Source of the DNA: Thermoanaerobaculia bacterium | Lineage (GTDB): Bacteria; Acidobacteriota; Thermoanaerobaculia; Gp7-AA8 | Direction of reading: 5' to 3' | Assembly (NCBI GenBank): GCA_036522835.1 | Contig: DATDFB010000093.1 | Span: 40,683 to 104,682 of the forward strand | DNA: 64,000 nucleotides | Shown here: in pieces, positions 19,215 to 27,990 of the stretch | Position numbering within the stretch: position 1 is the stretch's first letter | Layout: every line of letters starts with the position of its first letter | Made by a program: the position numbers and the translations under genes | The notes under the pieces: generated by a model | Seen by the model: the letters and a program-made list of their open reading frames with translations, nothing else | Databases searched by the model: none | What the model was told of the DNA's origin: nothing

Positions 19215-20606
19215 TTGAGAAGGCTCGCTCTCGTTGTCCTCACGTTTGCCCTAACCGCGTGCGCGACCACGGATGCCGATCGCGTCAAGGGGTTCGAGCG
19301 GGAGGCGGATGCGCTCCGGCAGGCTCTATACATCCCCGGCATGTCCGCCGCGATCGTGAAGGACCAGAAGGTTCTTTGGACGCACGGCTTTGGATACGCC
19401 GACCTCGAGAACCGCGTGCCCGCCACGCCGGACACGCTCTACCACGTGGCCTCGGTGACGAAGACGTTCGGCGCGACGCTGGTGCTGCAGCTCGTCGAGA
19501 AGGGGGAGGTCTCGCTCGACGAGCCGATTGCGCCGTACACGCCGTCGCGGTTCTCGGGGAAGATCACCGACCCGCGCGTGCAGATCCGCCATATTCTCAG
19601 CCACACGTCCGCGGGCACGCCGGGCGATGCCTTCGCCTACAACGGCAGCCTCTACGATGCGGTCACGCCGGTGATCGAGAAGAAGTACGGGGCGCCGTTC
19701 CGGCAGGTGATCGCGCAGCGGATTCTCGATCCGCTGAAGATGACGGAAAGCGTTCCCGGCCACGAGGTGATCAACGATCCGGAGCTCGCGCGCCGCTACG
19801 CGCCCAACCTCGCGCGCTTCGCCAAACCGTACGCGCTCTACGGCAAGGGCGAGATCGTCCCCGCCAGCTACCCCGGCAAAGAGATCGGTGCCTCCGCCGG
19901 GTTGCTCTCGACGGTGCGCGACCTCGCGAAGTACGACATCGCCATCGATCGCCACGTCCTTCTCCAGCCGAAGACGCAGGAGCTTGCGTGGACGCCGTTC
20001 GTGTCGAACAAGGGCGAGCGCCTCCCATACGGACTCGGTTGGTTCACCGGCGAGTACCGCGGCGAGAAACTCATCTGGCACACCGGCAATTGGGGTTTGG
20101 GGTTCTCAGCGTTGGTTTTCAAGGTGCCGGCGAGGAATGTGTCGGTGATTCTTCTGGCGAACAGCGAGGCGCTCGCCGACGGCTTCTGGGTCCCGGGCGA
20201 GACGAATCCGTTTGCCTGCGCGTTCCTTCGGCAGTTCGTGTTGACGGCGGACGATCCTTGCAAAGAGGCGGCGGCGGCGGTGATGAACCAGTGGCTGGCC
20301 GGGCGCGCGGCGGCTTACGAGCCGGCCATCGCGCTCGACGAGGCGGTCCTGGCGTCCTACGCCGGCGAGTACCGGCCGAGCGAGGGGCGGACGCACACGA
20401 TCGCGCGCGAGGGAACGCACCTTTTCGTCGACATCCCAAGGAAAGACGATCGATTGGAGATTTTCCCCTCCGCGAAGGGCGATTTCTTCCTCAAAGTCCC
20501 GACGGTGACGCGCATACGATTCATTCGCGAGGGGGAGAAAGTGACGGCGCTGGAGTTCACCTTCGGCCCAGGAGAGAAGCCCATTCGCGCGGAGAAGATC
20601 CGGTGA
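19215..20606 (+). CDS. serine hydrolase of the class C beta-lactamase / penicillin-binding-protein-like family
   Basis: Lipoprotein-like signal peptide. S-x-x-K motif in HVASVTKTF. 463 aa. Confidence 0.85.
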   Translation: MRRLALVVLTFALTACATTDADRVKGFEREADALRQALYIPGMSAAIVKDQKVLWTHGFGYADLENRVPATPDTLYHVASVTKTFGATLVLQLVEKGEVSLDEPIAPYTPSRFSGKITDPRVQIRHILSHTSAGTPGDAFAYNGSLYDAVTPVIEKKYGAPFRQVIAQRILDPLKMTESVPGHEVINDPELARRYAPNLARFAKPYALYGKGEIVPASYPGKEIGASAGLLSTVRDLAKYDIAIDRHVLLQPKTQELAWTPFVSNKGERLPYGLGWFTGEYRGEKLIWHTGNWGLGFSALVFKVPARNVSVILLANSEALADGFWVPGETNPFACAFLRQFVLTADDPCKEAAAAVMNQWLAGRAAAYEPAIALDEAVLASYAGEYRPSEGRTHTIAREGTHLFVDIPRKDDRLEIFPSAKGDFFLKVPTVTRIRFIREGEKVTALEFTFGPGEKPIRAEKIR

Positions 20607-20790
20607 CGGACTTCAGGACCTGCTTTTCGAAAATGCCGCTTCGATCGGCGCCGACCGAGCCGGCAGCCTGCCACTGCACGATGAGTTTCGAGGCCGCCTC
20701 GATCGAAGTCACGTCGAGCGCGCAGGGGATGTTCTCCGCCGATCGCGAACGGCCGTTCCGAAGTACGTATTGAGTACGCGGAGTCCAACA
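20600..20790 (-). mobile_element. degenerate duplicate of the integrase 5' region (integrase remnant) ending in the conserved GTACGTATTGAGTACGCG motif
   Basis: 20612-20725 is ~85-90% identical to 25307-25510. Encodes ALDVTSIEAASKLIVQWQAAG vs ALDVTTIEAASKLILQWRAAG of the integrase at 25159-25623. Confidence 0.5.
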
Positions 20791-21034
20791 TGTCATAGCT
20801 TTTCGCCCTTTGCCGGTTGTCCTCGAAGAAGGAAGGTCTTCGGATACTTTCCTTCGCTGCAAATCTTGAATGAGCCGAAGTCTTTACCCAGGGTCCGTCC
20901 GGTGCTACCGGCTCCGACTCACGCCAGACCTTGAGCTGGTAGAGGTCTTCGACGGTGATTTTGCGCGCGCGAAGTCGGTCGAAGAGGTGGTCGCGCAACG
21001 CTGCCGGTAGATTGGTCCACTGAATCTTCGGCAC
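20770..21034 (-). pseudogene. truncated ORF translationally coupled to the upstream RHH gene (putative toxin remnant)
   Basis: GTG overlaps the RHH stop (TAGTG). Reads VPKIQWTNLPAALRDHLFDRLRARKITVEDLYQLKVW... and runs without a stop into the integrase-remnant duplicate and the opposite-strand bla-like gene. Confidence 0.3.
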
Positions 21035-21306
21035 TACGGCTCACCGAACGTCATGCGTGCCAGTTCTTCTTTGAGCCGTTTCTGCTCGGCGGGATCGGAC
21101 GAATGGGTCAGCCGGTCCGCAACCTCAAAGAATGCAACCTTCTCCCGCTCCTTTGCATCGAGACCGCTTTCGATCAGATCGACGATGACGCGGTTGGCAC
21201 TGGTGCGATGGCGCTTCGCGAGCGCCTGAACACGCCGTGCCACGGATAACGGGAGACTGACGCTCTGGCGGACAGTTCGCTGCGATTGAGCCATGAGCTT
21301 CTTCAT
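21034..21306 (-). CDS. ribbon-helix-helix (CopG/ParD-like) protein, antitoxin-like
   Basis: RQSVSLPLSVARRVQALAKRHRTSANRVIVDLIESGL fits the RHH beta-strand plus two helices. 90 aa. Lies in the low-GC patch. Confidence 0.6.
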   Translation of the reverse strand: MKKLMAQSQRTVRQSVSLPLSVARRVQALAKRHRTSANRVIVDLIESGLDAKEREKVAFFEVADRLTHSSDPAEQKRLKEELARMTFGEP

Positions 21307-21548
21307 CCTACACCATCATGCACCACGATGCACCAGCGCAGCGCATCGTAGTCGACAGCTCTGAGTTTGAGCGGAAACAGCAGCTTGAGGAGTAGTAGCG
21401 ATTGATGGAGACGGCGGAACCTAACCCTACTCTCGTCTTTTCAGTAACTTACTGAAAACACTATACCACGAAAAGCGCGTGAACCGCGTGAATGGCGGTT
21501 CGGAGGTACGTATTGAGTACGCGACACGGGCGCGGATGCGGCGTTCGA

Positions 21549-21824
21549 TCATTTTCCGACCTTGACCCAGGTGAAATACTTCGCGGTAATCGGTTCGGAA
21601 GCACCATTCCATGCCCGCATTGAGGCGATCTTCTTGTCTGTCATCTGGTCTCCGGCAAGAACAGCGGTTGAGCCGTCGTCGAAGCGCACGTCGCATTTGG
21701 CGCGGTGCTCGAATTCCTTCGGAAAGATGTCGACGGCTTCGCCGTTGCATAGCGCGGCAGGACGACATCCGGGCAGCCGGGTAGGTCTCAAACATGGATA
21801 CGGAAACGTAAGCCACGCGCCCAC
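21549..21824 (-). CDS. small hypothetical protein (GTG start)
   Basis: 91-aa ORF in the low-GC island, downstream of the REC-effector gene. No family recognised. Confidence 0.3.
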   Translation of the reverse strand: MGAWLTFPYPCLRPTRLPGCRPAALCNGEAVDIFPKEFEHRAKCDVRFDDGSTAVLAGDQMTDKKIASMRAWNGASEPITAKYFTWVKVGK

Positions 21825-21989: not shown

Positions 21990-22973
21990 CTACGATGCGA
22001 TCTGCCGCACCCATCTCTCAACCACCGCCCGCACCTGGAGATCCTTTGAATAATCTTGATAGAGGTCCTTGATTAGATCGAAGGGCACGGACGGCAGCGA
22101 CGTATGACGCAGTACGAGACACTCCTTTCCTTGGTAATGCATCATGCCAAGCTCGTAGGCGACATTTGGGCTATAAGCCTGGCCAGCTTCAGCTTCATCA
22201 AAGAGTGCGATGCCGAATTTGCAGCAGTAGAGGACTGCAATCGGATTGTAGATGTTACGGGTTATATTCCAAGCGTCCTGATCAGCACGGACGCCGCACA
22301 GGCCGGCGCGCGCGAGACATTCAATGATGAATTCGCCTAGCTCCACATTGTTTGCACGAAACTTCATCATTAGGAATACGTTTTTCTCGAATGGGAAACG
22401 AAGTAGTTGGCGCTCGATATCTTTTTTGTAGCCGACTAGTGGTTTTATGAGTTCGTATCGGCCATGACTAAGCAGGTCAAGTGTTCGCTCCTTCTCGGGA
22501 ACCAGGCGCCTTATTTCTTCCTCGACGATACGCCGCACCTCACGTTCGCGCACAAATTCTAAGTTGGGGTGTGGCGCAGCGACTGGCGTTCTAATAATCG
22601 AGTCAATGAGTTCCATCAAGGACGCTGTGTTCAACTCCGACTTGTCCAACAAGGCGTCCACACCTAGCGCACTTAGCTCGCGGGTATAACGGGCCGAGAA
22701 TGCAGAAACGGCGATAAGGGGCGTTTTCGGTAGTAAAGTCTTAGCGAACTTAATAAAGCCCAGGCCGTCCGATTCATTCGGAGAAAGTACGAGATCGGTT
22801 ACTATGGCGTTGTAGGCCGGATCGGCCTTCAGGCGAGCTATAGCGTCCTCGGCGGACGTGACGAGAGTGACGTCGACCCTATCGCTAATAGTGTCGCGAA
22901 TCGCGTCGAGGTAAATCACGTCATCGTCGAGCCACAGTAGACGCGGCTTGGATGAAGAAGATGTCGTCGGCAT
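21990..22973 (-). CDS. response regulator: receiver domain fused to a nucleoside 2-deoxyribosyltransferase/DNPH1-like (TIR-related flavodoxin-fold) domain
   Basis: REC part: LLWLDDD, IVTDLVL, LIAVSAF, LLDKS. C-terminal part: NVFLMMKF ... IAVLYCCKFG ... SPNVAYELGMMHYQGKECLVL, which matches the catalytic-Glu motif of NDT (DVGLGMELGYALSQGKYVLLV) and DNPH1 (SLGVGYELGRAVAFNKRILCLF). ATG overlaps the HK stop (TGATG). Confidence 0.75.
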   Translation of the reverse strand: MPTTSSSSKPRLLWLDDDVIYLDAIRDTISDRVDVTLVTSAEDAIARLKADPAYNAIVTDLVLSPNESDGLGFIKFAKTLLPKTPLIAVSAFSARYTRELSALGVDALLDKSELNTASLMELIDSIIRTPVAAPHPNLEFVREREVRRIVEEEIRRLVPEKERTLDLLSHGRYELIKPLVGYKKDIERQLLRFPFEKNVFLMMKFRANNVELGEFIIECLARAGLCGVRADQDAWNITRNIYNPIAVLYCCKFGIALFDEAEAGQAYSPNVAYELGMMHYQGKECLVLRHTSLPSVPFDLIKDLYQDYSKDLQVRAVVERWVRQIAS

Positions 22974-24418
22974 CAATCCTCCCCTTGCGTCAGTTCAGTG
23001 CCGTCTGGCCGCCGCTGAAATGCGAACAATGTGCATCGGACACGCGGTAATGTTACCGTCGCAATTGTTTTTGCCTCGTCATCAGATACGCTGCGTTGCA
23101 GTTTGACTGAACCACCATACCCTTCAATTACTGTACGGACGACGGCAAGACCATACCCGCGTCCCGGCCCATTCCGGGTTGAGAAGCCCTCCTCGAAGAT
23201 CTTCTGTTGCAGGCCTGGCGGAATACCTTCCCCATTGTCAATCACTCTGATGATCACGCGCCCGCCGTCTGGATTTCCTTCGCCTTGAGTCAGGACGGCG
23301 ACGCGGCCAGATCTGTCAGGCGAAACCGCGTCATACGCGTTCCGCAGTAGATTCACAATAGCGCGCATAAGTTCTACGCTGTCGGCACGCACGCAGCAGT
23401 TGTGTGAATAGTGGACTGTTAGAACAGCGCGCTCCGGCCGCGTTTCTTTGATCGCCATAACGGCGAGTTGGACCACGGTATTGACATTGACAACGCTCGT
23501 GCGTGGCGCACGGCTATCCGAAGCGGCGGTGGGGGCCAAAAGATCGTTTAGATCTATAAGATCATTAGGAGTCGGCAATAACTGCTGCGCGGCTGAGAGC
23601 GTAGCGTTAACGCGCAGGACGGCGTCGTCCAGCGCTTGTAGCTCGGCAGCGACCCGGTCTTCGGCCGGCCCGAGTAACTGTGTAATACGGTCGACATGCA
23701 GGCCGATTTGGGCAATAGGCGTTCCTAGTTCGTGCGTCACACGACCTATGGTGGCAGCCGCTCCAGATAGACGTGCGCCGATCGACGCCTTTTCAATGAA
23801 GGCCGCCTCAAGCCCATATGCGATCGACACTTTACTAGCAATAGCGACGACGAACAGGATTTGCAAAAAAGGAGCGGCTGTGGTCGCTGGAATGATGGCT
23901 GATAGTGGCTGCAGCATTGCGTAGCAAAGGGCACCGCCTGCTGGCAGATGGACAAAGCGTGCGGCTCCCGGCAACGAAATGGTTAAAGCCTTGCAATAGA
24001 AGACAGCAAGAGCGACCAGGCCGAATGTGTTCAGCATTGCCATGAGAAACGGTCGCAGTTGAAAGGGCGCCCAAATCGATGACGCGGCGATGACGATTAG
24101 TAGCGTTAGGGCGATGCGCCATATGGAAGAGACACGTCGCTCACTTAGCAAAGCTGCGCCGAACAGCGCAGCGGAGATAACATCAAAAGCCACCGAGGAG
24201 ACTTCCAGCCACCGGTATTCAGGAAGTGCGGGGACGCCAAGAGTACCGATGAGGAGGTATACGAGGTGGGCGAACCAGCCTAGTGCGGCTAGCGAGAACG
24301 ATCGTCGCGCCAACACCCGGACGGCCTGTGCATTGGTGATGATTAAGAGGATGACCGCGAAGAGTTGCGCGGTCACGAGATAGTTGATCAGCCGTTGAAG
24401 CACCTGCGAAGTCACCAT
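22973..24418 (-). CDS. multi-pass membrane sensor histidine kinase (6-7 TM, HisKA, HATPase_c)
   Basis: About 200-aa N-terminal region with 6-7 hydrophobic helices. H-box VTHELGTPIAQIG. N, G1 and G2 boxes (NLLRNAYDA, DNGEGIP, GYGLAVV). Confidence 0.85.
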   Translation of the reverse strand: MVTSQVLQRLINYLVTAQLFAVILLIITNAQAVRVLARRSFSLAALGWFAHLVYLLIGTLGVPALPEYRWLEVSSVAFDVISAALFGAALLSERRVSSIWRIALTLLIVIAASSIWAPFQLRPFLMAMLNTFGLVALAVFYCKALTISLPGAARFVHLPAGGALCYAMLQPLSAIIPATTAAPFLQILFVVAIASKVSIAYGLEAAFIEKASIGARLSGAAATIGRVTHELGTPIAQIGLHVDRITQLLGPAEDRVAAELQALDDAVLRVNATLSAAQQLLPTPNDLIDLNDLLAPTAASDSRAPRTSVVNVNTVVQLAVMAIKETRPERAVLTVHYSHNCCVRADSVELMRAIVNLLRNAYDAVSPDRSGRVAVLTQGEGNPDGGRVIIRVIDNGEGIPPGLQQKIFEEGFSTRNGPGRGYGLAVVRTVIEGYGGSVKLQRSVSDDEAKTIATVTLPRVRCTLFAFQRRPDGTELTQGED

Positions 24419-24494
24419 TCTGGAATCATGTATTTTGTGGTATCGGGTAGGGCGCTGCCAATGAGAAGTTCGCTGGGATGATGAATGCCACGCG

Positions 24495-25623
24495 TTAGCG
24501 ATGGCCTCGCACGAGTCGAAGGTGCGCGGGTGCGACGGGCCAAGCTTTCATGACTGCCGCTTCAAGCTGCTCATGCCGCGCCTTCACCCACGGCGCATAG
24601 CTCTTCTCGGTGATTTTCACCGGGGAATGGCCGAGAAGCACGGACACTTGGTCGATCGGAACGCCGGCGAGGAGAAGCTCCACGGCGAAGGTGTCACGGA
24701 AGCGGTGGGCATGCGCGCCGCTCACATTCGCTATGTCGACGCAAAGTTTGCGGAGCGATCGCTGTTAATCGGCAACCGTCGTTTTGGGGAGGCCGTTGCC
24801 GGACCAGAAGAAGTAGCTCGGATGCACGTTCGGCGTCTCGTCGAGGGCCGCGATGACGTAAGGTGGCAGCGGCACGAAGACCGGCACGCCGGTCTTCTGC
24901 ATATAGAGGAGAAGCTTGCCGTCGCGGACGCGCTCACGCCGGAGCGTGGCGGCGTCGCGGATACGGAGCCCGGAGTGCGCAGGAGCAGCACCATCGCACG
25001 GAGGCGGGTGCGGTTCCCTTCGCCGTAGATGCCTTTGATCGGGAACCGGTCGCAGGCAGAGACGATCGCAGTCATTTCCTCGGCGGTGAAGGGGAGCGTC
25101 GGGTCCTGCTTCACCTTCGGCGGGTGGAGTGACTTCATCGGGTTGTCGGAGATCCACTTCATGCGCATGCAGAAGTAGAAGAAGCCGACGACGCGCTGGT
25201 ACTTCTTCGAGGCGGCGAGCGCCTCGTCTTTCCACGTCGAACGCCACGCGGTGAGGCGATCGGGAGTGAGGTCTTGAGGAACCGGTAGCCGTGGTCTTTG
25301 GCGAACTTCAGAAACTGCCTTTCGAAAATCGTGGTGAGCTTCGTGATGGTGGCTTTGGCGAGGTCCCGGGCGCGGGCGTCGTCGAGGTACTTCATGACGG
25401 CCGTCTCGATGCGCGTCGGTTCAACCTTCTGGCCGCCGATCGTGCCGGCGGCCCGCCACTGCAGGATGAGCTTCGAGGCCGCCTCGATCGTGGTCACGTC
25501 GAGCGCGCGGCTGATGGTCTCTCCGGCGAGCGTGCCCTGGACCCAGATGGGGCAGGAGCAGCGGAGATAGGAACGGGAGGTATGGGAGCAGGACTTCAGA
25601 TGGCGGCGGTAGATTCGAAGCAT
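24495..25623 (-). pseudogene. int: tyrosine-type site-specific integrase disrupted by at least three frameshifts
   Basis: N-terminus MLRIYRRHLKSC...RCSCPIWVQG in one frame. RAMVLLL... / HSGLRIRD...KTGVPVFVPLPPYVIAAL in two other frames. C-terminal HRFRDTFAVELLLAGVPIDQVSVLLGHSPVKITEKSYAP (catalytic Tyr) in a fourth. Sits next to the tmRNA 3' end. Confidence 0.7.
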
Positions 25624-25732
25624 CGCGCTCTCCGTTCTAGATCGAAGAGTACGTATTAGGTACACGCCGAATCGCCAGTTTCGCGAGAATCGCTAAACGC
25701 CGCAAGATCAGTCGTTTAGGTCGCTAAAATCG

Positions 25733-26089
25733 TTGGTGGAGGCGGCGGGAGTCGAACCCGCGTCCGAGAGCAGTGAAGCGTGGCTCCTACATGCTTATCT
25801 CTCCTTTAGATCTCGTCCGCGTTCTGCCCGGAGAGCGGGGAACGGACGCGGGCCAGCCTGTACGGTTTTCGTGCGCTGCGGCCAGGCGGTCCGCGGCACC
25901 TTAGCTCGACTCAATGACACCTCTTCCGCCGGCTCGAGCAACCGTACGGAGAGGCGCTCACGGGTTTTTAGGCCGCGAGGGCGAGTTCGCTGTTGTTCGC
26001 AGCTACTCAGTGTGATCGGATTTACGAGGCAATCAGCTCGGCATGCAACCACCGCCCCGACGTGTCCCCGTCGAAGCCGGTGCGCCCCC
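25733..26089 (-). ncRNA. ssrA: tmRNA (SsrA)
   Basis: 3' end ...AAGCAUGUAG...CGGACGCGGGUUCGACUCCCGCCGCCUCCACCA nearly matches the E. coli ssrA 3' end. 5' GGGGGCG..UUCGACGGG..GCAUGCCGAG..GCCUCGUAAA also matches. Predicted tag GCGAACAACAGCGAACUCGCCCUCGCGGCCUAA = ANNSELALAA*. Confidence 0.9.
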
Positions 26090-26124
26090 AACTTGTCAAC
26101 GAACTGCATCCGAAAACGGCGGGC

Positions 26125-26976
26125 ATGATGAGAGCATTCCGCGGCATGGACGTCCAGACCATCGTTCGCGCCGCGCTCGCCGAGGACCTGCCCGACATCA
26201 CCAGCGAAGCCATCTTCGACGCCGGCGACCGCGGCCGGGCCCGCTTCGTGGCCAAGGCAGCGGGCGTCGTCGCCGGGCTGCCGTTTGCCGAGGCGACATT
26301 CCAGGCCATCGACGCCACGAGCTCGTTCCGGGCGACGAAGAACGACGGCGACGCCGTCCAGCCCGGCGACGTCATCGCCGAGGTCGAGTCGAGCGTCATC
26401 GCCCTCCTGAGCGGCGAGCGCACCGCGCTCAACCTACTCCAGCGCGCCTCCGGCATCGCTACGACTACGAAACAATACGTCGACGCCGCCGGCGGCACGA
26501 ACGCCAAGATCTACGACACCCGCAAGACCGCGCCGGGCCTGCGCGAGATCGACAAATACGCCGTCCGTTGCGGCGGCGGCGAGAACCACCGCATCGGTCT
26601 CTTCGATATGTTCCTCATCAAGAACAACCACGTCGACCGCGCCGGCTCCATCACCAACGCCGTCGAGCGCATCCGCCGGCGGGGAATGCCGCAGAAGATC
26701 ATGGTGGAAGTGCGCGACATGCGCGAGCTCGACGAGGCACTGAGTCTGAGGCCCGACTTCATCCTTCTCGACAACATGAGCGCGAGCGAGCTCAAACAAG
26801 CCGTCGAGCGCACCGCCGGCGCCGTCCCGCTCGAGGCTTCGGGCGGCATCACGCTCGAGACCGTCAGGGCCATCGCCGAGAGCGGCGTCGACCGCATCTC
26901 CGTCGGCGCTTTGACTCATTCCGTCAAGGCTTTGGACATCTCCATGCGCGTCGTGGCACCGCCTTTGCCGCAGTGA
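26125..26976 (+). CDS. nadC: nicotinate-nucleotide pyrophosphorylase (quinolinate phosphoribosyltransferase)
   Basis: N-terminal IVRAALAEDL. TRKTAPGLR. NNHVDRAG. Start at ATG 26125, because the upstream part of the ORF is the tmRNA antisense. Confidence 0.85.
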   Translation: MMRAFRGMDVQTIVRAALAEDLPDITSEAIFDAGDRGRARFVAKAAGVVAGLPFAEATFQAIDATSSFRATKNDGDAVQPGDVIAEVESSVIALLSGERTALNLLQRASGIATTTKQYVDAAGGTNAKIYDTRKTAPGLREIDKYAVRCGGGENHRIGLFDMFLIKNNHVDRAGSITNAVERIRRRGMPQKIMVEVRDMRELDEALSLRPDFILLDNMSASELKQAVERTAGAVPLEASGGITLETVRAIAESGVDRISVGALTHSVKALDISMRVVAPPLPQ

Positions 26977-26982
26977 CCGCTT

Positions 26983-27990
<1,008 letters not shown>

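Follow-up and report, generated by a model that had tools for sequence, protein, structure and literature searches.

A histidine kinase (HK) gene and a response regulator (RR) gene from a Thermoanaerobaculia (Acidobacteriota) MAG may constitute a self-contained, horizontally mobile two-gene phosphorelay that has an enzyme, and not a transcription factor, as its output; we put the chances of this reading at about even. The C-terminal module of the regulator is an unannotated conserved domain that combines an N-glycosidase fold with a predicted catalytic Glu, which makes it probably a nucleotide- or NAD-degrading unit, switched by a signal and of the anti-phage kind. Catalysis by this module, a substrate that is either NAD+ or nucleotides, and a role in defense are what we infer. 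The features of the locus are listed in Table 1, where positions refer to the window, i.e., the entire 64,000-nt stretch of DNA that was analyzed.

Table 1. Features of the HK-RR locus and the surrounding island in the window.
Feature	Position	Strand	Basis and remarks
Sensor histidine kinase gene (HK)	22973..24418	-	481 aa, intact ORF; public record HEY6137837.1 'sensor histidine kinase'
HK N-terminal membrane-embedded region, residues 1-208	23795..24418	-	~6 TM segments (hydropathy scan, translation)
Codon of predicted phospho-accepting His H229 (VTHELGTP H-box)	23732..23734	-	Invariant column H229, codon checked
HK catalytic ATP-binding (CA) domain	23042..23383	-	PF02518 over residues 346-459
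GGAGGA Shine-Dalgarno and TGATG stop/start overlap	22971..22982	-	Sequence read; translational coupling HK to RR
Response regulator gene (RR)	21990..22973	-	327 aa from ATG at 22973, stop codon counted; intact
Receiver (REC) domain	22590..22943	-	PF00072 E 1.1e-5; (beta-alpha)5 fold in model
Codon of predicted phospho-acceptor Asp D60 (IVTDLVL)	22794..22796	-	Conservation, codon checked
Charged helical linker EREVRRIVEEEIRRLVPEKE after disordered hinge	22488..22547	-	Full-length model, translation checked
NDT/TIR-like effector module, C-terminal ~165 aa	21993..22490	-	Beta-hairpin, helix, then flavodoxin-like core
Codon of predicted catalytic Glu, E274 of protein = E113 of module (NVAYELG)	22152..22154	-	Conservation, hhalign; codon checked
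Weak sigma-70-like promoter match 5' of HK gene	24432..24461	-	Hexamers match at 9/12
Tyrosine-integrase pseudogene, three reading frames	24495..25665	-	Three ORF fragments; C-terminal one PF00589 E 3e-7
tmRNA gene, island integration target	25734..26089	-	ARAGORN; tag peptide ANNSELALAA
Candidate degenerate att copy of tmRNA 3' end	21403..21419	-	14/17 bases; support modest
RHH/RelB-like small ORF, older island fragment	21034..21306	-	NCBIfam RelB-like E 0.006, weak; no Pfam match
Remnant of second integrase 5' region, older island fragment	20604..20780	-	Direct repeats D1-D4

Both ORFs were found at exactly the positions given in a first-pass annotation of the window. The RR ORF (21990-22976, minus strand) encodes 328 aa from a TTG start and 327 aa from the ATG start; 516 RR homologues were recovered, and the RR cluster member HEY6137836.1 carries the name 'response regulator'. 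Translational coupling of kinase and regulator, also proposed in that annotation, was borne out by the overlapping stop and start codons and the Shine-Dalgarno sequence ahead of them. A promoter and terminator scan of the region returned sites no more numerous than in shuffles, with nothing over the shuffle expectation.

By its predicted residues the kinase is a canonical two-component kinase, with a phospho-His H-box and N, G1, and G2 ATP-binding boxes. It had been described as a multi-TM sensor kinase, and the hydrophobic segments of its N-terminal region, approximately six in number, are indeed followed by the H-box and a HATPase_c match (E 9.6e-21). The membrane region lacks a large extracytoplasmic loop, and a Pfam search of the HK found no sensor domain. 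In an alignment of four partner kinases (A3), the residues of the H-box and of the N, G1, and G2 boxes do not vary, namely H229, N356/N360, D394-N395-G396-x-G398, and G421-x-G423-L424. The partner kinases of other loci share ~20% identity yet have a common membrane architecture.

The receiver likewise appears canonical, and the complete phospho-chemistry set claimed for it (acidic pocket, phospho-Asp, Ser/Thr, and Lys) was recovered: D17, D60, and K111 are each present in 90% or more of 60 homologues, and the consensus reads VDD...TDL...IIVxS...K. In the full-length RR model, residues 135-139 have a pLDDT below 50 and a helix spans residues 143-162. Pfam detected no DNA-binding or c-di-GMP domain in the RR, in agreement with the earlier statement that the output is of neither type, and an ordinary output of either kind was rejected on the absence of such domains.

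A Pfam search of the ~165-aa module gave no model above cutoff. In its AlphaFold model (monomer, pLDDT 92), the module is predicted to have a flavodoxin-like NDT fold; the top structural matches of the model are nucleoside 2-deoxyribosyltransferases, the MilB/BcmB CMP N-glycosidases, and DNPH1, with TIR domains closely behind. One strand of the first-pass annotation had to be reassigned: IAVLYCC was taken as beta3, whereas residues 82-87 (NPIAVL) are helical in the model and beta3 is FGIALF. The PF05014 profile scores 15.5 bits against the module (cutoff 28.8) and is weakly matched by 40 of 50 close members, all under the cutoff (best E 7e-4). PF10137 (CAP12/Pycsar TIR-like) did not match the window protein; it was matched weakly by 4 of the 50 close members and by 30 of 106 distant members, in the latter on the module stretch itself, with P0249 as the only distant member above its cutoff (25.7 versus 24.7 bits). 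HMMER profiles (narrow A1, broad A4, and the distant member P0249) run against all PDB sequences retrieved no NDT, DNPH1, or TIR chain, so the link of the module to solved enzymes comes from the fold searches together with weak hhalign and Pfam matches. Because these sequence links are below cutoff and divided between PF05014 and PF10137, NAD+ is as good a candidate substrate as dNMP/NMP.

Of 228 homologues, 226 retain the motif Glu E113, 100% have N82, and at least 96% have each of N37, N109, and D138. Using LlNDT and DNPH1 reference sequences that had been checked against the PDB, hhalign aligned E113 with the Glu of the DNPH1 GYELG motif and with LlNDT E98 (pairwise E 0.0025-0.015, probability 3-12%), and the PFDL motif of the module (D138) with PINL of LlNDT (N123); an acidic counterpart of LlNDT D92 is absent from the alignment. 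By alignment, a near-invariant Glu occupies the NDT/DNPH1 nucleophile position of the module, in the helix that follows beta3. An NDT/DNPH1/TIR-related fold with a catalytic Glu had been proposed for this domain; the fold match and the aligned Glu agree with the proposal, but the sequence links fall below the family cutoffs. Three outcomes had been named as refuting the proposal, and none was observed: profile searches placed the C-terminal domain in no non-enzymatic family, the Glu is conserved among homologues, and the neighbors are not nucleoside-salvage genes (see below).

The module family comprises 1,442 representatives (clusters at 50% identity), for which there is no Pfam, NCBIfam, or PADLOC model. 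PADLOC gave no match to module or kinase when run on both proteins of the HK-RR pair, on the ORFs of the island, and on other module architectures; it recognized nothing but the canonical TIR fused in P0091 and a neighboring MTase. The module is fused mainly to sensor or input domains (REC, GAF, HEAT, ResIII/DEAD helicase, AbiJ_NTD3, and guanylate-kinase-like), and the conflict-system domains TIR, SIR2_2, and AEP-TOTE are also among its partners; such a joining of many input domains to one module fits the role of an effector. Within the HK-RR system, constraint is strongest on the module, with a pN of 0.067 compared to 0.20 for REC and 0.30 for HK; pN and pS are given instead of dN/dS because synonymous sites are saturated. 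The family is spread patchily over many phyla and archaea (62 loci in ~186,000 species genomes), and the REC-fused form is an Acidobacteriota clade. No relatives of the module were found in GenBank phages (tblastn) or IMG/VR viral contigs. The literature searched describes no REC-NDT or REC-TIR-like regulator; Kaur et al. (2020) mention receiver domains only sporadically, and no kinase.

The HK-RR pair lies on a tmRNA-integrated island, as seen from an integrase beside the tmRNA gene (its fragments begin 68 bp away), a deviant GC content (52-60% over 21-25 kb, with flanks at 65-70%), and a weak far repeat. The far-boundary repeat is a weak element, being no more than a 14/17 candidate; four other matches with three mismatches occur elsewhere in the window. 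In addition to the second integrase-region remnant, a shorter third copy is found at 21487-21523, and an 18-nt repeat is present three times versus 0.02 expected. The first-pass annotation had described a decayed low-GC tmRNA island that also carries an RHH gene. The tmRNA, the GC dip, and the split integrase were all confirmed, but the RHH gene belongs to the older fragment; located beyond the att-like remnant, it is probably outside the HK-RR unit.

Of 13 REC-type loci, 9 have a kinase gene next to the regulator gene and in the same orientation, and four lack an adjacent kinase. REC-type neighborhoods are mixed: they are often mobile or R-M-like, e.g., transposases with a Type ISP R-M enzyme, or an integrase trio with PIN_12, FRG, and a TIR protein, and they also include plain housekeeping genes. 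Contexts of the non-REC forms include a prophage-like locus with HicAB and an MmeI R-M system, and an integrase/relaxase element. In the loci examined, the neighbors are never nucleoside-salvage genes, which would speak for metabolism, and no conserved metabolic neighbor was found in REC-type loci. A nucleoside-salvage role was rejected on the absence of conserved salvage neighbors. The preference for a conflict or defense role over housekeeping, expressed in the first-pass annotation, agrees with the mobile or R-M-like contexts, but the contexts are mixed and form the sole basis for defense.

For the HK-RR pair we propose a mechanism in which the kinase would sense a membrane-associated cue, such as a perturbation at phage entry or envelope stress, autophosphorylate on H229, and pass the phosphate to D60. 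Receiver dimerization, relayed by the charged helical linker, may then gather two or more effector domains, which would form a composite active site; NDTs work as dimers and TIRs as oligomers, and in both the assembly is needed for the active site. The gathered effector would cleave an abundant nucleotide cofactor or precursor, either NAD+ or (d)NMP/NTP, at its N-glycosidic bond, and depletion of the pool would stop growth and hence phage replication. The polarity could also be the reverse, with the effector activated by loss of phosphorylation.

Alternatively, the pair could be a physiological, non-immune regulator that responds to membrane or envelope stress and, via a phospho-activated nucleosidase, tunes nucleotide/NAD pools or induces dormancy, the ppGpp-regulated PpnN/LOG-type nucleotide nucleosidases being an analogue. 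The module is 60-70% identical from one architecture to another, a degree of conservation unusual among immune effectors, which evolve fast, and one that counts against an immune role. We nevertheless consider a non-immune regulator unlikely, given that its distribution is rare and patchy, with the gene located on islands, transposon-flanked segments, prophage-like regions, and tiny plasmids, that a metabolic neighbor is never conserved, that the module has fusion partners typical of conflict systems, and that the window pair is the cargo of an island and not part of the core genome.

Another explanation, which we judge quite improbable, takes the pair as the orphaned remainder of a larger R-M-linked system with methylase, nicking-endonuclease-like, and GHKL-ATPase genes. 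In the closest relatives (loci L008, L009, and L012, where the module is 79-89% identical), a cluster of HhH-GPD (nicking-endonuclease-like), Dcm, HATPase_c_3, and PF20553 genes adjoins HK-RR in the same orientation and with very short gaps, and in L021 a 740-aa HATPase_c_3 gene lies directly upstream of a REC-module gene that has no HK. By gene content, the cluster resembles the layout of Ambrosia (2025 preprint), a two-component module in an R-M-like phage-defense cluster (XRE, MTase, HK/HATPase, REC-wHTH, and HNH), which provides a precedent for an MTase, a HATPase, a REC protein, and a nuclease as one defense unit. In Ambrosia, however, the regulator is a transcription factor of the wHTH type with no enzyme fusion, and the window island is without Ambrosia-like R-M genes. 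The HK-RR pair also occurs without the R-M-like cluster in L001, L003, L004, and L014, as in the window, where both genes remain intact and purifying selection acts on them.

The module might instead be a non-catalytic output, namely a TIR/SLOG-like ligand-binding or scaffold domain that oligomerizes, or binds a partner or a nucleotide signal, upon phosphorylation. There is little room for this reading: 99% of homologues retain the Glu at the nucleophile position, and the polar N37, N82, N109, and D138 are retained as well; structural searches rank NDT and MilB enzymes first; the GAF, HEAT, and REC fusions would be left without an output; and a partner gene is never conserved. Least probable is a signal generator, a TIR-like cyclase or transferase making a cADPR-isomer-type messenger for an unlinked effector, which would fit the relatedness of the module to the CAP12/Pycsar TIR family and to TIRs making signaling ADPR isomers, as well as the TIR_2 gene adjoining one non-REC member, but the CAP12/Pycsar TIRs are themselves terminal NADase effectors, and a conserved receptor or effector gene (SLOG, Macro, or SIR2-type) accompanies the pair in none of the loci examined.

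To our knowledge, Detocs is the sole described two-component phosphorelay that directly drives an immune effector, and an enzyme-output phosphorelay at the HK-RR locus would extend its logic to another effector fold, to a sensor in the membrane, and to a simpler layout of two genes. Detocs consists of the DtcA kinase, the DtcB buffer receiver, and the DtcC REC-PNP effector, which in the canonical system is an ATP nucleosidase that cleaves the N-glycosidic bond; effector swapping is documented (Rousset et al., 2023). Common to both is a kinase that acts on a regulator with an enzyme output in place of a DNA-binding domain, cell arrest being the outcome that we infer here. The earlier label 'Detocs-like' holds for this kinase-gated regulator with an enzyme-type output but not for membership of the system. 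As had been noted, there is no separate buffer receiver, since no second REC ORF is present in the window island or beside related pairs, whereas the MacSyFinder rule for Detocs needs all three genes. The kinase is multi-TM with no recognized sensor domain, whereas DtcA is depicted with TPR repeats, and the effector has an NDT/TIR-like fold instead of PNP/PF01048. PADLOC v2 gave no match to HK and RR at E values up to 1, the presence of Detocs models in that version being unconfirmed.

The NDT-like N-glycosidase effectors that type II retrons (Retron-Eco1/Ec86, Sen2) use in defense, in which the catalytic E106 corresponds to LlNDT E98 and activity needs dimerization, share with the module an NDT-like fold with a Glu, a likeness of fold and motif with no sequence relationship established. 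The retron effector is restrained by RT-msDNA filaments and has a C-terminal DNA-binding lobe, whereas the module is predicted to be controlled by a receiver and a kinase. CAP12/Pycsar proteins (PF10137; TIR-STING, PycTIR) are terminal NADase effectors activated by oligomerization; in contrast to the HK-RR pair, their input is a cyclic-nucleotide sensor (STING or cNMP-binding) and not phosphorylation, and the module differs by an extra N-terminal beta-hairpin and helix and by close members that favor PF05014. The NDT, DNPH1 (Rcl), and MilB-BcmB enzymes resemble the module in the order of secondary structures and the E-L-G nucleophile motif, but they are stand-alone metabolic enzymes, whereas the module would be a signaling output. 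The DUF4062 TIR-like NADases (Swarozyc, Evangelion), which have a conserved Glu and lie between the TIR and NDT clans, offer a precedent, since this once unannotated family turned out to act in defense upon assembly. They are of a different family (PF13271 is absent among the Pfam results) and are activated by a phage portal and not by a kinase.

The module exposes a large unannotated family between the NDT and TIR-like NADase clans. We tentatively suggest, as a possibility well short of an even chance, that it is a new, widespread N-glycosidase immune effector family bridging these clans (at least 1,400 clusters at 50% identity), and that its receiver-fused form is a defensive two-component system pared down to two genes and lacking a buffer, in which the membrane kinase reports phage at the envelope and switches on NAD+/nucleotide depletion, possibly acting on a substrate new to immunity (for instance (d)NMPs or nucleotides that carry modifications). 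As the family is wired to many input domains, more systems that deplete nucleotides or NAD are likely to be found in it. Plasmids of 3.6 kb in Citrobacter, Klebsiella, and Salmonella carry a distant homologue as their only cargo, which makes the family experimentally tractable.

The translationally coupled kinase-regulator pair proposed in the first-pass annotation was borne out by the open reading frames, the gene overlap, and the domains found. The stop codon of the histidine kinase (HK) gene and the start codon of the response regulator (RR) gene overlap as TGATG, with the A common to both, and a GGAGGA Shine-Dalgarno sequence is located six bases upstream of the RR start. HK residues 1-208 comprise about six hydrophobic segments without a sizeable extracytoplasmic loop and are followed by the H-box VTHELGTP and an HATPase_c domain (E 9.6e-21). 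The RR carries a receiver domain (REC; PF00072, E 1e-5), beyond which the domain search returned nothing above any cutoff, and the public record of this Thermoanaerobaculia MAG names the two proteins 'sensor histidine kinase' and 'response regulator'. The coordinates of these and other features are collected in the table.

Coordinates of the features discussed (window positions, unless a locus of the module family is named)
Feature	Position	Strand	Remarks
HK ORF	22973-24418	minus	481 aa; ORF call
RR ORF	21990-22976	minus	327/328 aa; ORF call; downstream of HK ORF
91-aa ORF	21549-21824	minus	between RR gene and att-like remnant
Candidate att copy of tmRNA 3' end	21403-21419		14/17 bases; support only modest
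RHH-like ORF	21034-21306		weak RelB-like match
ORF from GTG 21034	20790-21034	minus	immediately after RHH gene
Tyrosine integrase	24495-25665		broken into three frames; adjoins tmRNA 3' end
Integrase 5'-region copies	20604-20780; 21487-21523		
18-nt integrase 5'-end sequence	20763-20780; 21506-21523; 25649-25666		three copies
88-nt repeat	20649-20736; 25434-25521		86% identity
tmRNA gene	25734-26089	minus	
nadC	26122-26973	plus	quinolinate phosphoribosyltransferase; E 5e-74 to 1x1o; host side of tmRNA
REC-GGDEF response regulator	26983-27990	plus	host side of tmRNA
R-M-like cluster + HK-RR, L008	3347-7500		
R-M-like cluster + HK-RR, L009	4163-7558		
R-M-like cluster + HK-RR, L012	925-5069		
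HATPase_c_3 and REC-module genes, L021	1454-4839		Terracidiphilus MAG
Split REC-module gene, L064	6505-7511		Vicinamibacterales
WP_200002678.1-type gene, L010	1648-2586		NZ_OW967268.1, Citrobacter freundii 3.6-kb plasmid
WP_200002678.1-type gene, L011	1067-1972		

Receiver residues D17, D60, and K111 were each at least 90% conserved among 60 full-length homologues, in which the REC half was far more diverged than the C-terminal module (the last ~165 aa). In the full-length RR model (pLDDT 89, pTM 0.57), residues 135-139 form a disordered hinge after REC, and a charged helix spanning 143-162 connects this hinge to the module. Partner kinases at other loci kept the same multi-TM/DHp/CA layout and every catalytic box at an identity of only about 20%. 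In the comparison with the closest genomic relative, synonymous sites were saturated (pS 0.75-0.93), and pN rose from 0.067 in the module through 0.20 in REC plus linker to 0.30 in the kinase; thus, the effector is under the tightest constraint and the sensor under the loosest, a pattern to be expected when a conserved weapon is paired with an adaptable trigger. Purifying selection acts on both genes.

Searching 5.8 billion proteins for RR homologues gave 516 matches, and the module remained 60-72% identical even where the remainder of the protein was unrelated. It was found after REC, after a canonical TIR domain (protein P0091), after ~300-aa uncharacterised N-terminal regions, alone, or N-terminal ahead of C-terminal extensions. 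At 50% identity, the exhaustive profile search (E up to 1e-3) yielded 1,442 representatives, among which the commonest fusion partner was guanylate-kinase-like; this P-loop N-domain plus the module, in proteins of about 365 aa, is the commonest architecture and occurs in Firmicutes, Bacteroidota, Planctomycetota, and archaea (loci L022, L029, L030, L032-L043, L045-L047, L050, L053, L062, L070, and L073). Other partners were NUDIX, AbiJ_NTD3, AEP-TOTE, GAF, HEAT, ResIII/DEAD, SIR2_2, and acylphosphatase. Since several partners (REC, GAF, HEAT, helicases, and AbiJ N-domains) serve as inputs or sensors, the constant module is likely the output domain of its fusions. The window pair rests on an unannotated domain family.

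The AlphaFold model of the module (50-sequence alignment; pLDDT 92, pTM 0.88) consists of a beta-hairpin and a helix followed by a five-stranded flavodoxin-like core. The top Foldseek matches in PDB were the CMP N-glycosidase BcmB (E 4.6e-4), several nucleoside 2-deoxyribosyltransferases (NDTs), and Rcl/DNPH1, followed by SARM1 and plant TIRs; matches in a viral library were mainly annotated as NDT or CMP hydrolase. These results corroborate the NDT/DNPH1-type fold initially suggested for this domain. The accompanying assignment of IAVLYCC to beta3 was wrong: this segment is helix plus turn in the model, and beta3 is FGIALF. As modeled, NDT and TIR are inseparable by fold alone.

The window module scored 15.5 bits against the NDT family PF05014 (cutoff 28.8). 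Close members matched PF05014 in 40/50 cases (best E 7e-4) and the CAP12/Pycsar TIR-like family PF10137 in 4/50, whereas among distant members PF10137 matched the module itself in 30/106 (best E 6e-7, one above cutoff) and PF05014 in 11/106. By this split of profile matches, the family is placed between CAP12/Pycsar TIR-like NADases and NDTs, and its nearest family is TIR-like NADase as much as NDT. With DNPH1 and L. leichmannii NDT (LlNDT) sequences verified against PDB, hhalign placed module YSPNVAYELGMMHYQGKECLVL on DNPH1 PSLGVGYELGRAVAFNKRILCLF (E 0.006 and 0.0025) and, on LlNDT (E 0.015), module E113 (protein E274) on E98 and PFDL (D138) on PINL (N123); the alignments to the two proteins were mutually consistent, at probabilities of only 3-12%. 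E98 is cited as the catalytic residue of LlNDT. Across 228 module members with identity down to about 27%, N82 was kept in 100%, E113 in 226, D138 in 97%, and N37 and N109 in 96% each. The catalytic-Glu motif noted at the outset holds up.

The GC content at 21-25 kb is 52-60%, compared to 65-70% in the surroundings. The 18-nt integrase 5'-end sequence occurs three times against 0.02 expected, and the integrase repeats point to repeated insertion at the tmRNA gene and subsequent decay. Based on the decayed integrase, the repeats, the GC dip, and the tmRNA gene, the locus is a tmRNA island that was targeted in series and has decayed; the HK-RR pair within it is intact. This agrees with the location originally reported for the pair, but the RHH-like gene assigned to the same island lies past the att-like remnant, within an older fragment. 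The ORF that follows it has an apparent frameshift near 20900, with the +1 frame going on ...DFGSFKICSEGKYPKTFLLRGQPAKGEKL to a stop, and its annotated frame extends into the integrase remnant; this frameshifted ORF probably represents what is left of the RHH gene's partner. The presence of the NAD-biosynthesis gene nadC near the island is probably a coincidence.

Only 62 module loci were found in about 186,000 genomes (one per species), distributed over Acidobacteriota, Desulfobacterota, Firmicutes, Bacteroidota, Planctomycetota, Verrucomicrobiota, Chloroflexota, Nitrospirota, and two archaea; the module was not found in phage genomes and IMG/VR contigs. Members fused to a receiver (REC-type) are essentially restricted to Acidobacteriota, and a kinase adjoins 9 of their 13 loci. 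Of the other four, one is a truncated copy and one a pseudogene split into three ORFs (L064), which shows that the cassette decays too in some genomes; in the remaining two, the gene upstream encodes Fic or, in place of HK, a 740-aa MORC-like HATPase_c_3 protein (L021). One REC-type neighbourhood contains transposases and a Type ISP R-M enzyme, another has three integrases together with PIN_12, FRG, and a TIR-pentapeptide protein, and a third is a chromosomal site near Fic. Of the non-REC members, one lies in a prophage-like region that also has HicAB and an R-M enzyme of MmeI type, another adjoins an integrase and a relaxase, and a third adjoins a TIR_2 gene.

The HK-RR pair is intact, coupled, and mobile, with a competent receiver and an effector-type domain that has an N-glycosidase fold and a conserved Glu at the nucleophile position. 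We give about an even chance to a phospho-gated N-glycosidase serving conflict or defence. The kinase would be switched on by a membrane-associated cue and would relay phosphate from H229 to D60; receiver dimerisation, via the helical linker, would build effector dimers or oligomers, whose composite site may cut the N-glycosidic bond of NAD+ or a nucleotide, and loss of that pool would lead to growth arrest. Active sites are dimeric in NDTs, and oligomerisation is required by TIR NADases. The fold, the Glu, and the mobile context of the earlier interpretation stand, whereas its enzyme activity, substrate, and defence role are what we infer. The suggested likeness to Detocs applies to the logic, in which a kinase acts on a REC-effector predicted here to cleave an N-glycosidic bond; however, lacking a buffer receiver and differing in kinase class and effector fold, the pair falls outside Detocs. 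NDT-like or TIR-like defence effectors are already established (retron Ec86, Cap12/PycTIR, and DUF4062), but none is receiver-gated, and the searchable literature yielded no account of a REC-NDT or REC-TIR-like regulator.

Some of the rival explanations are compatible with the phospho-gated N-glycosidase. That the pair regulates nucleotide or NAD pools under stress, outside immunity, appears rather unlikely; the census of 103 neighbours included integrases, HATPase_c_3, MTase, MADS components, and housekeeping genes, with no conserved nucleoside-salvage neighbour, in line with the non-salvage context expected from the first reading. It is quite unlikely that the pair belongs to, or is left over from, a larger R-M-linked system, for which the precedents are the Ambrosia system and a gene cluster in the three closest relatives (L008, L009, and L012). 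There, HhH-GPD (type II nicking-endonuclease-like), Dcm (C5 DNA methylase), HATPase_c_3 (MORC/MutL-like), and PF20553 genes directly abut HK-RR on the same strand and, by analogy, may form with it a larger R-M-linked unit resembling Ambrosia. A non-catalytic TIR/SLOG-like output is improbable, with E113 retained in nearly all members. A second-messenger generator is very improbable.

Small ColE1-type plasmids of Citrobacter (3.6 kb), Klebsiella, and Salmonella carry as essentially their sole cargo a distant, non-REC homologue of the module. This 312-aa hypothetical protein, WP_200002678.1, shows weak PF10137 and PF05014 matches and offers a tractable way into experiments.
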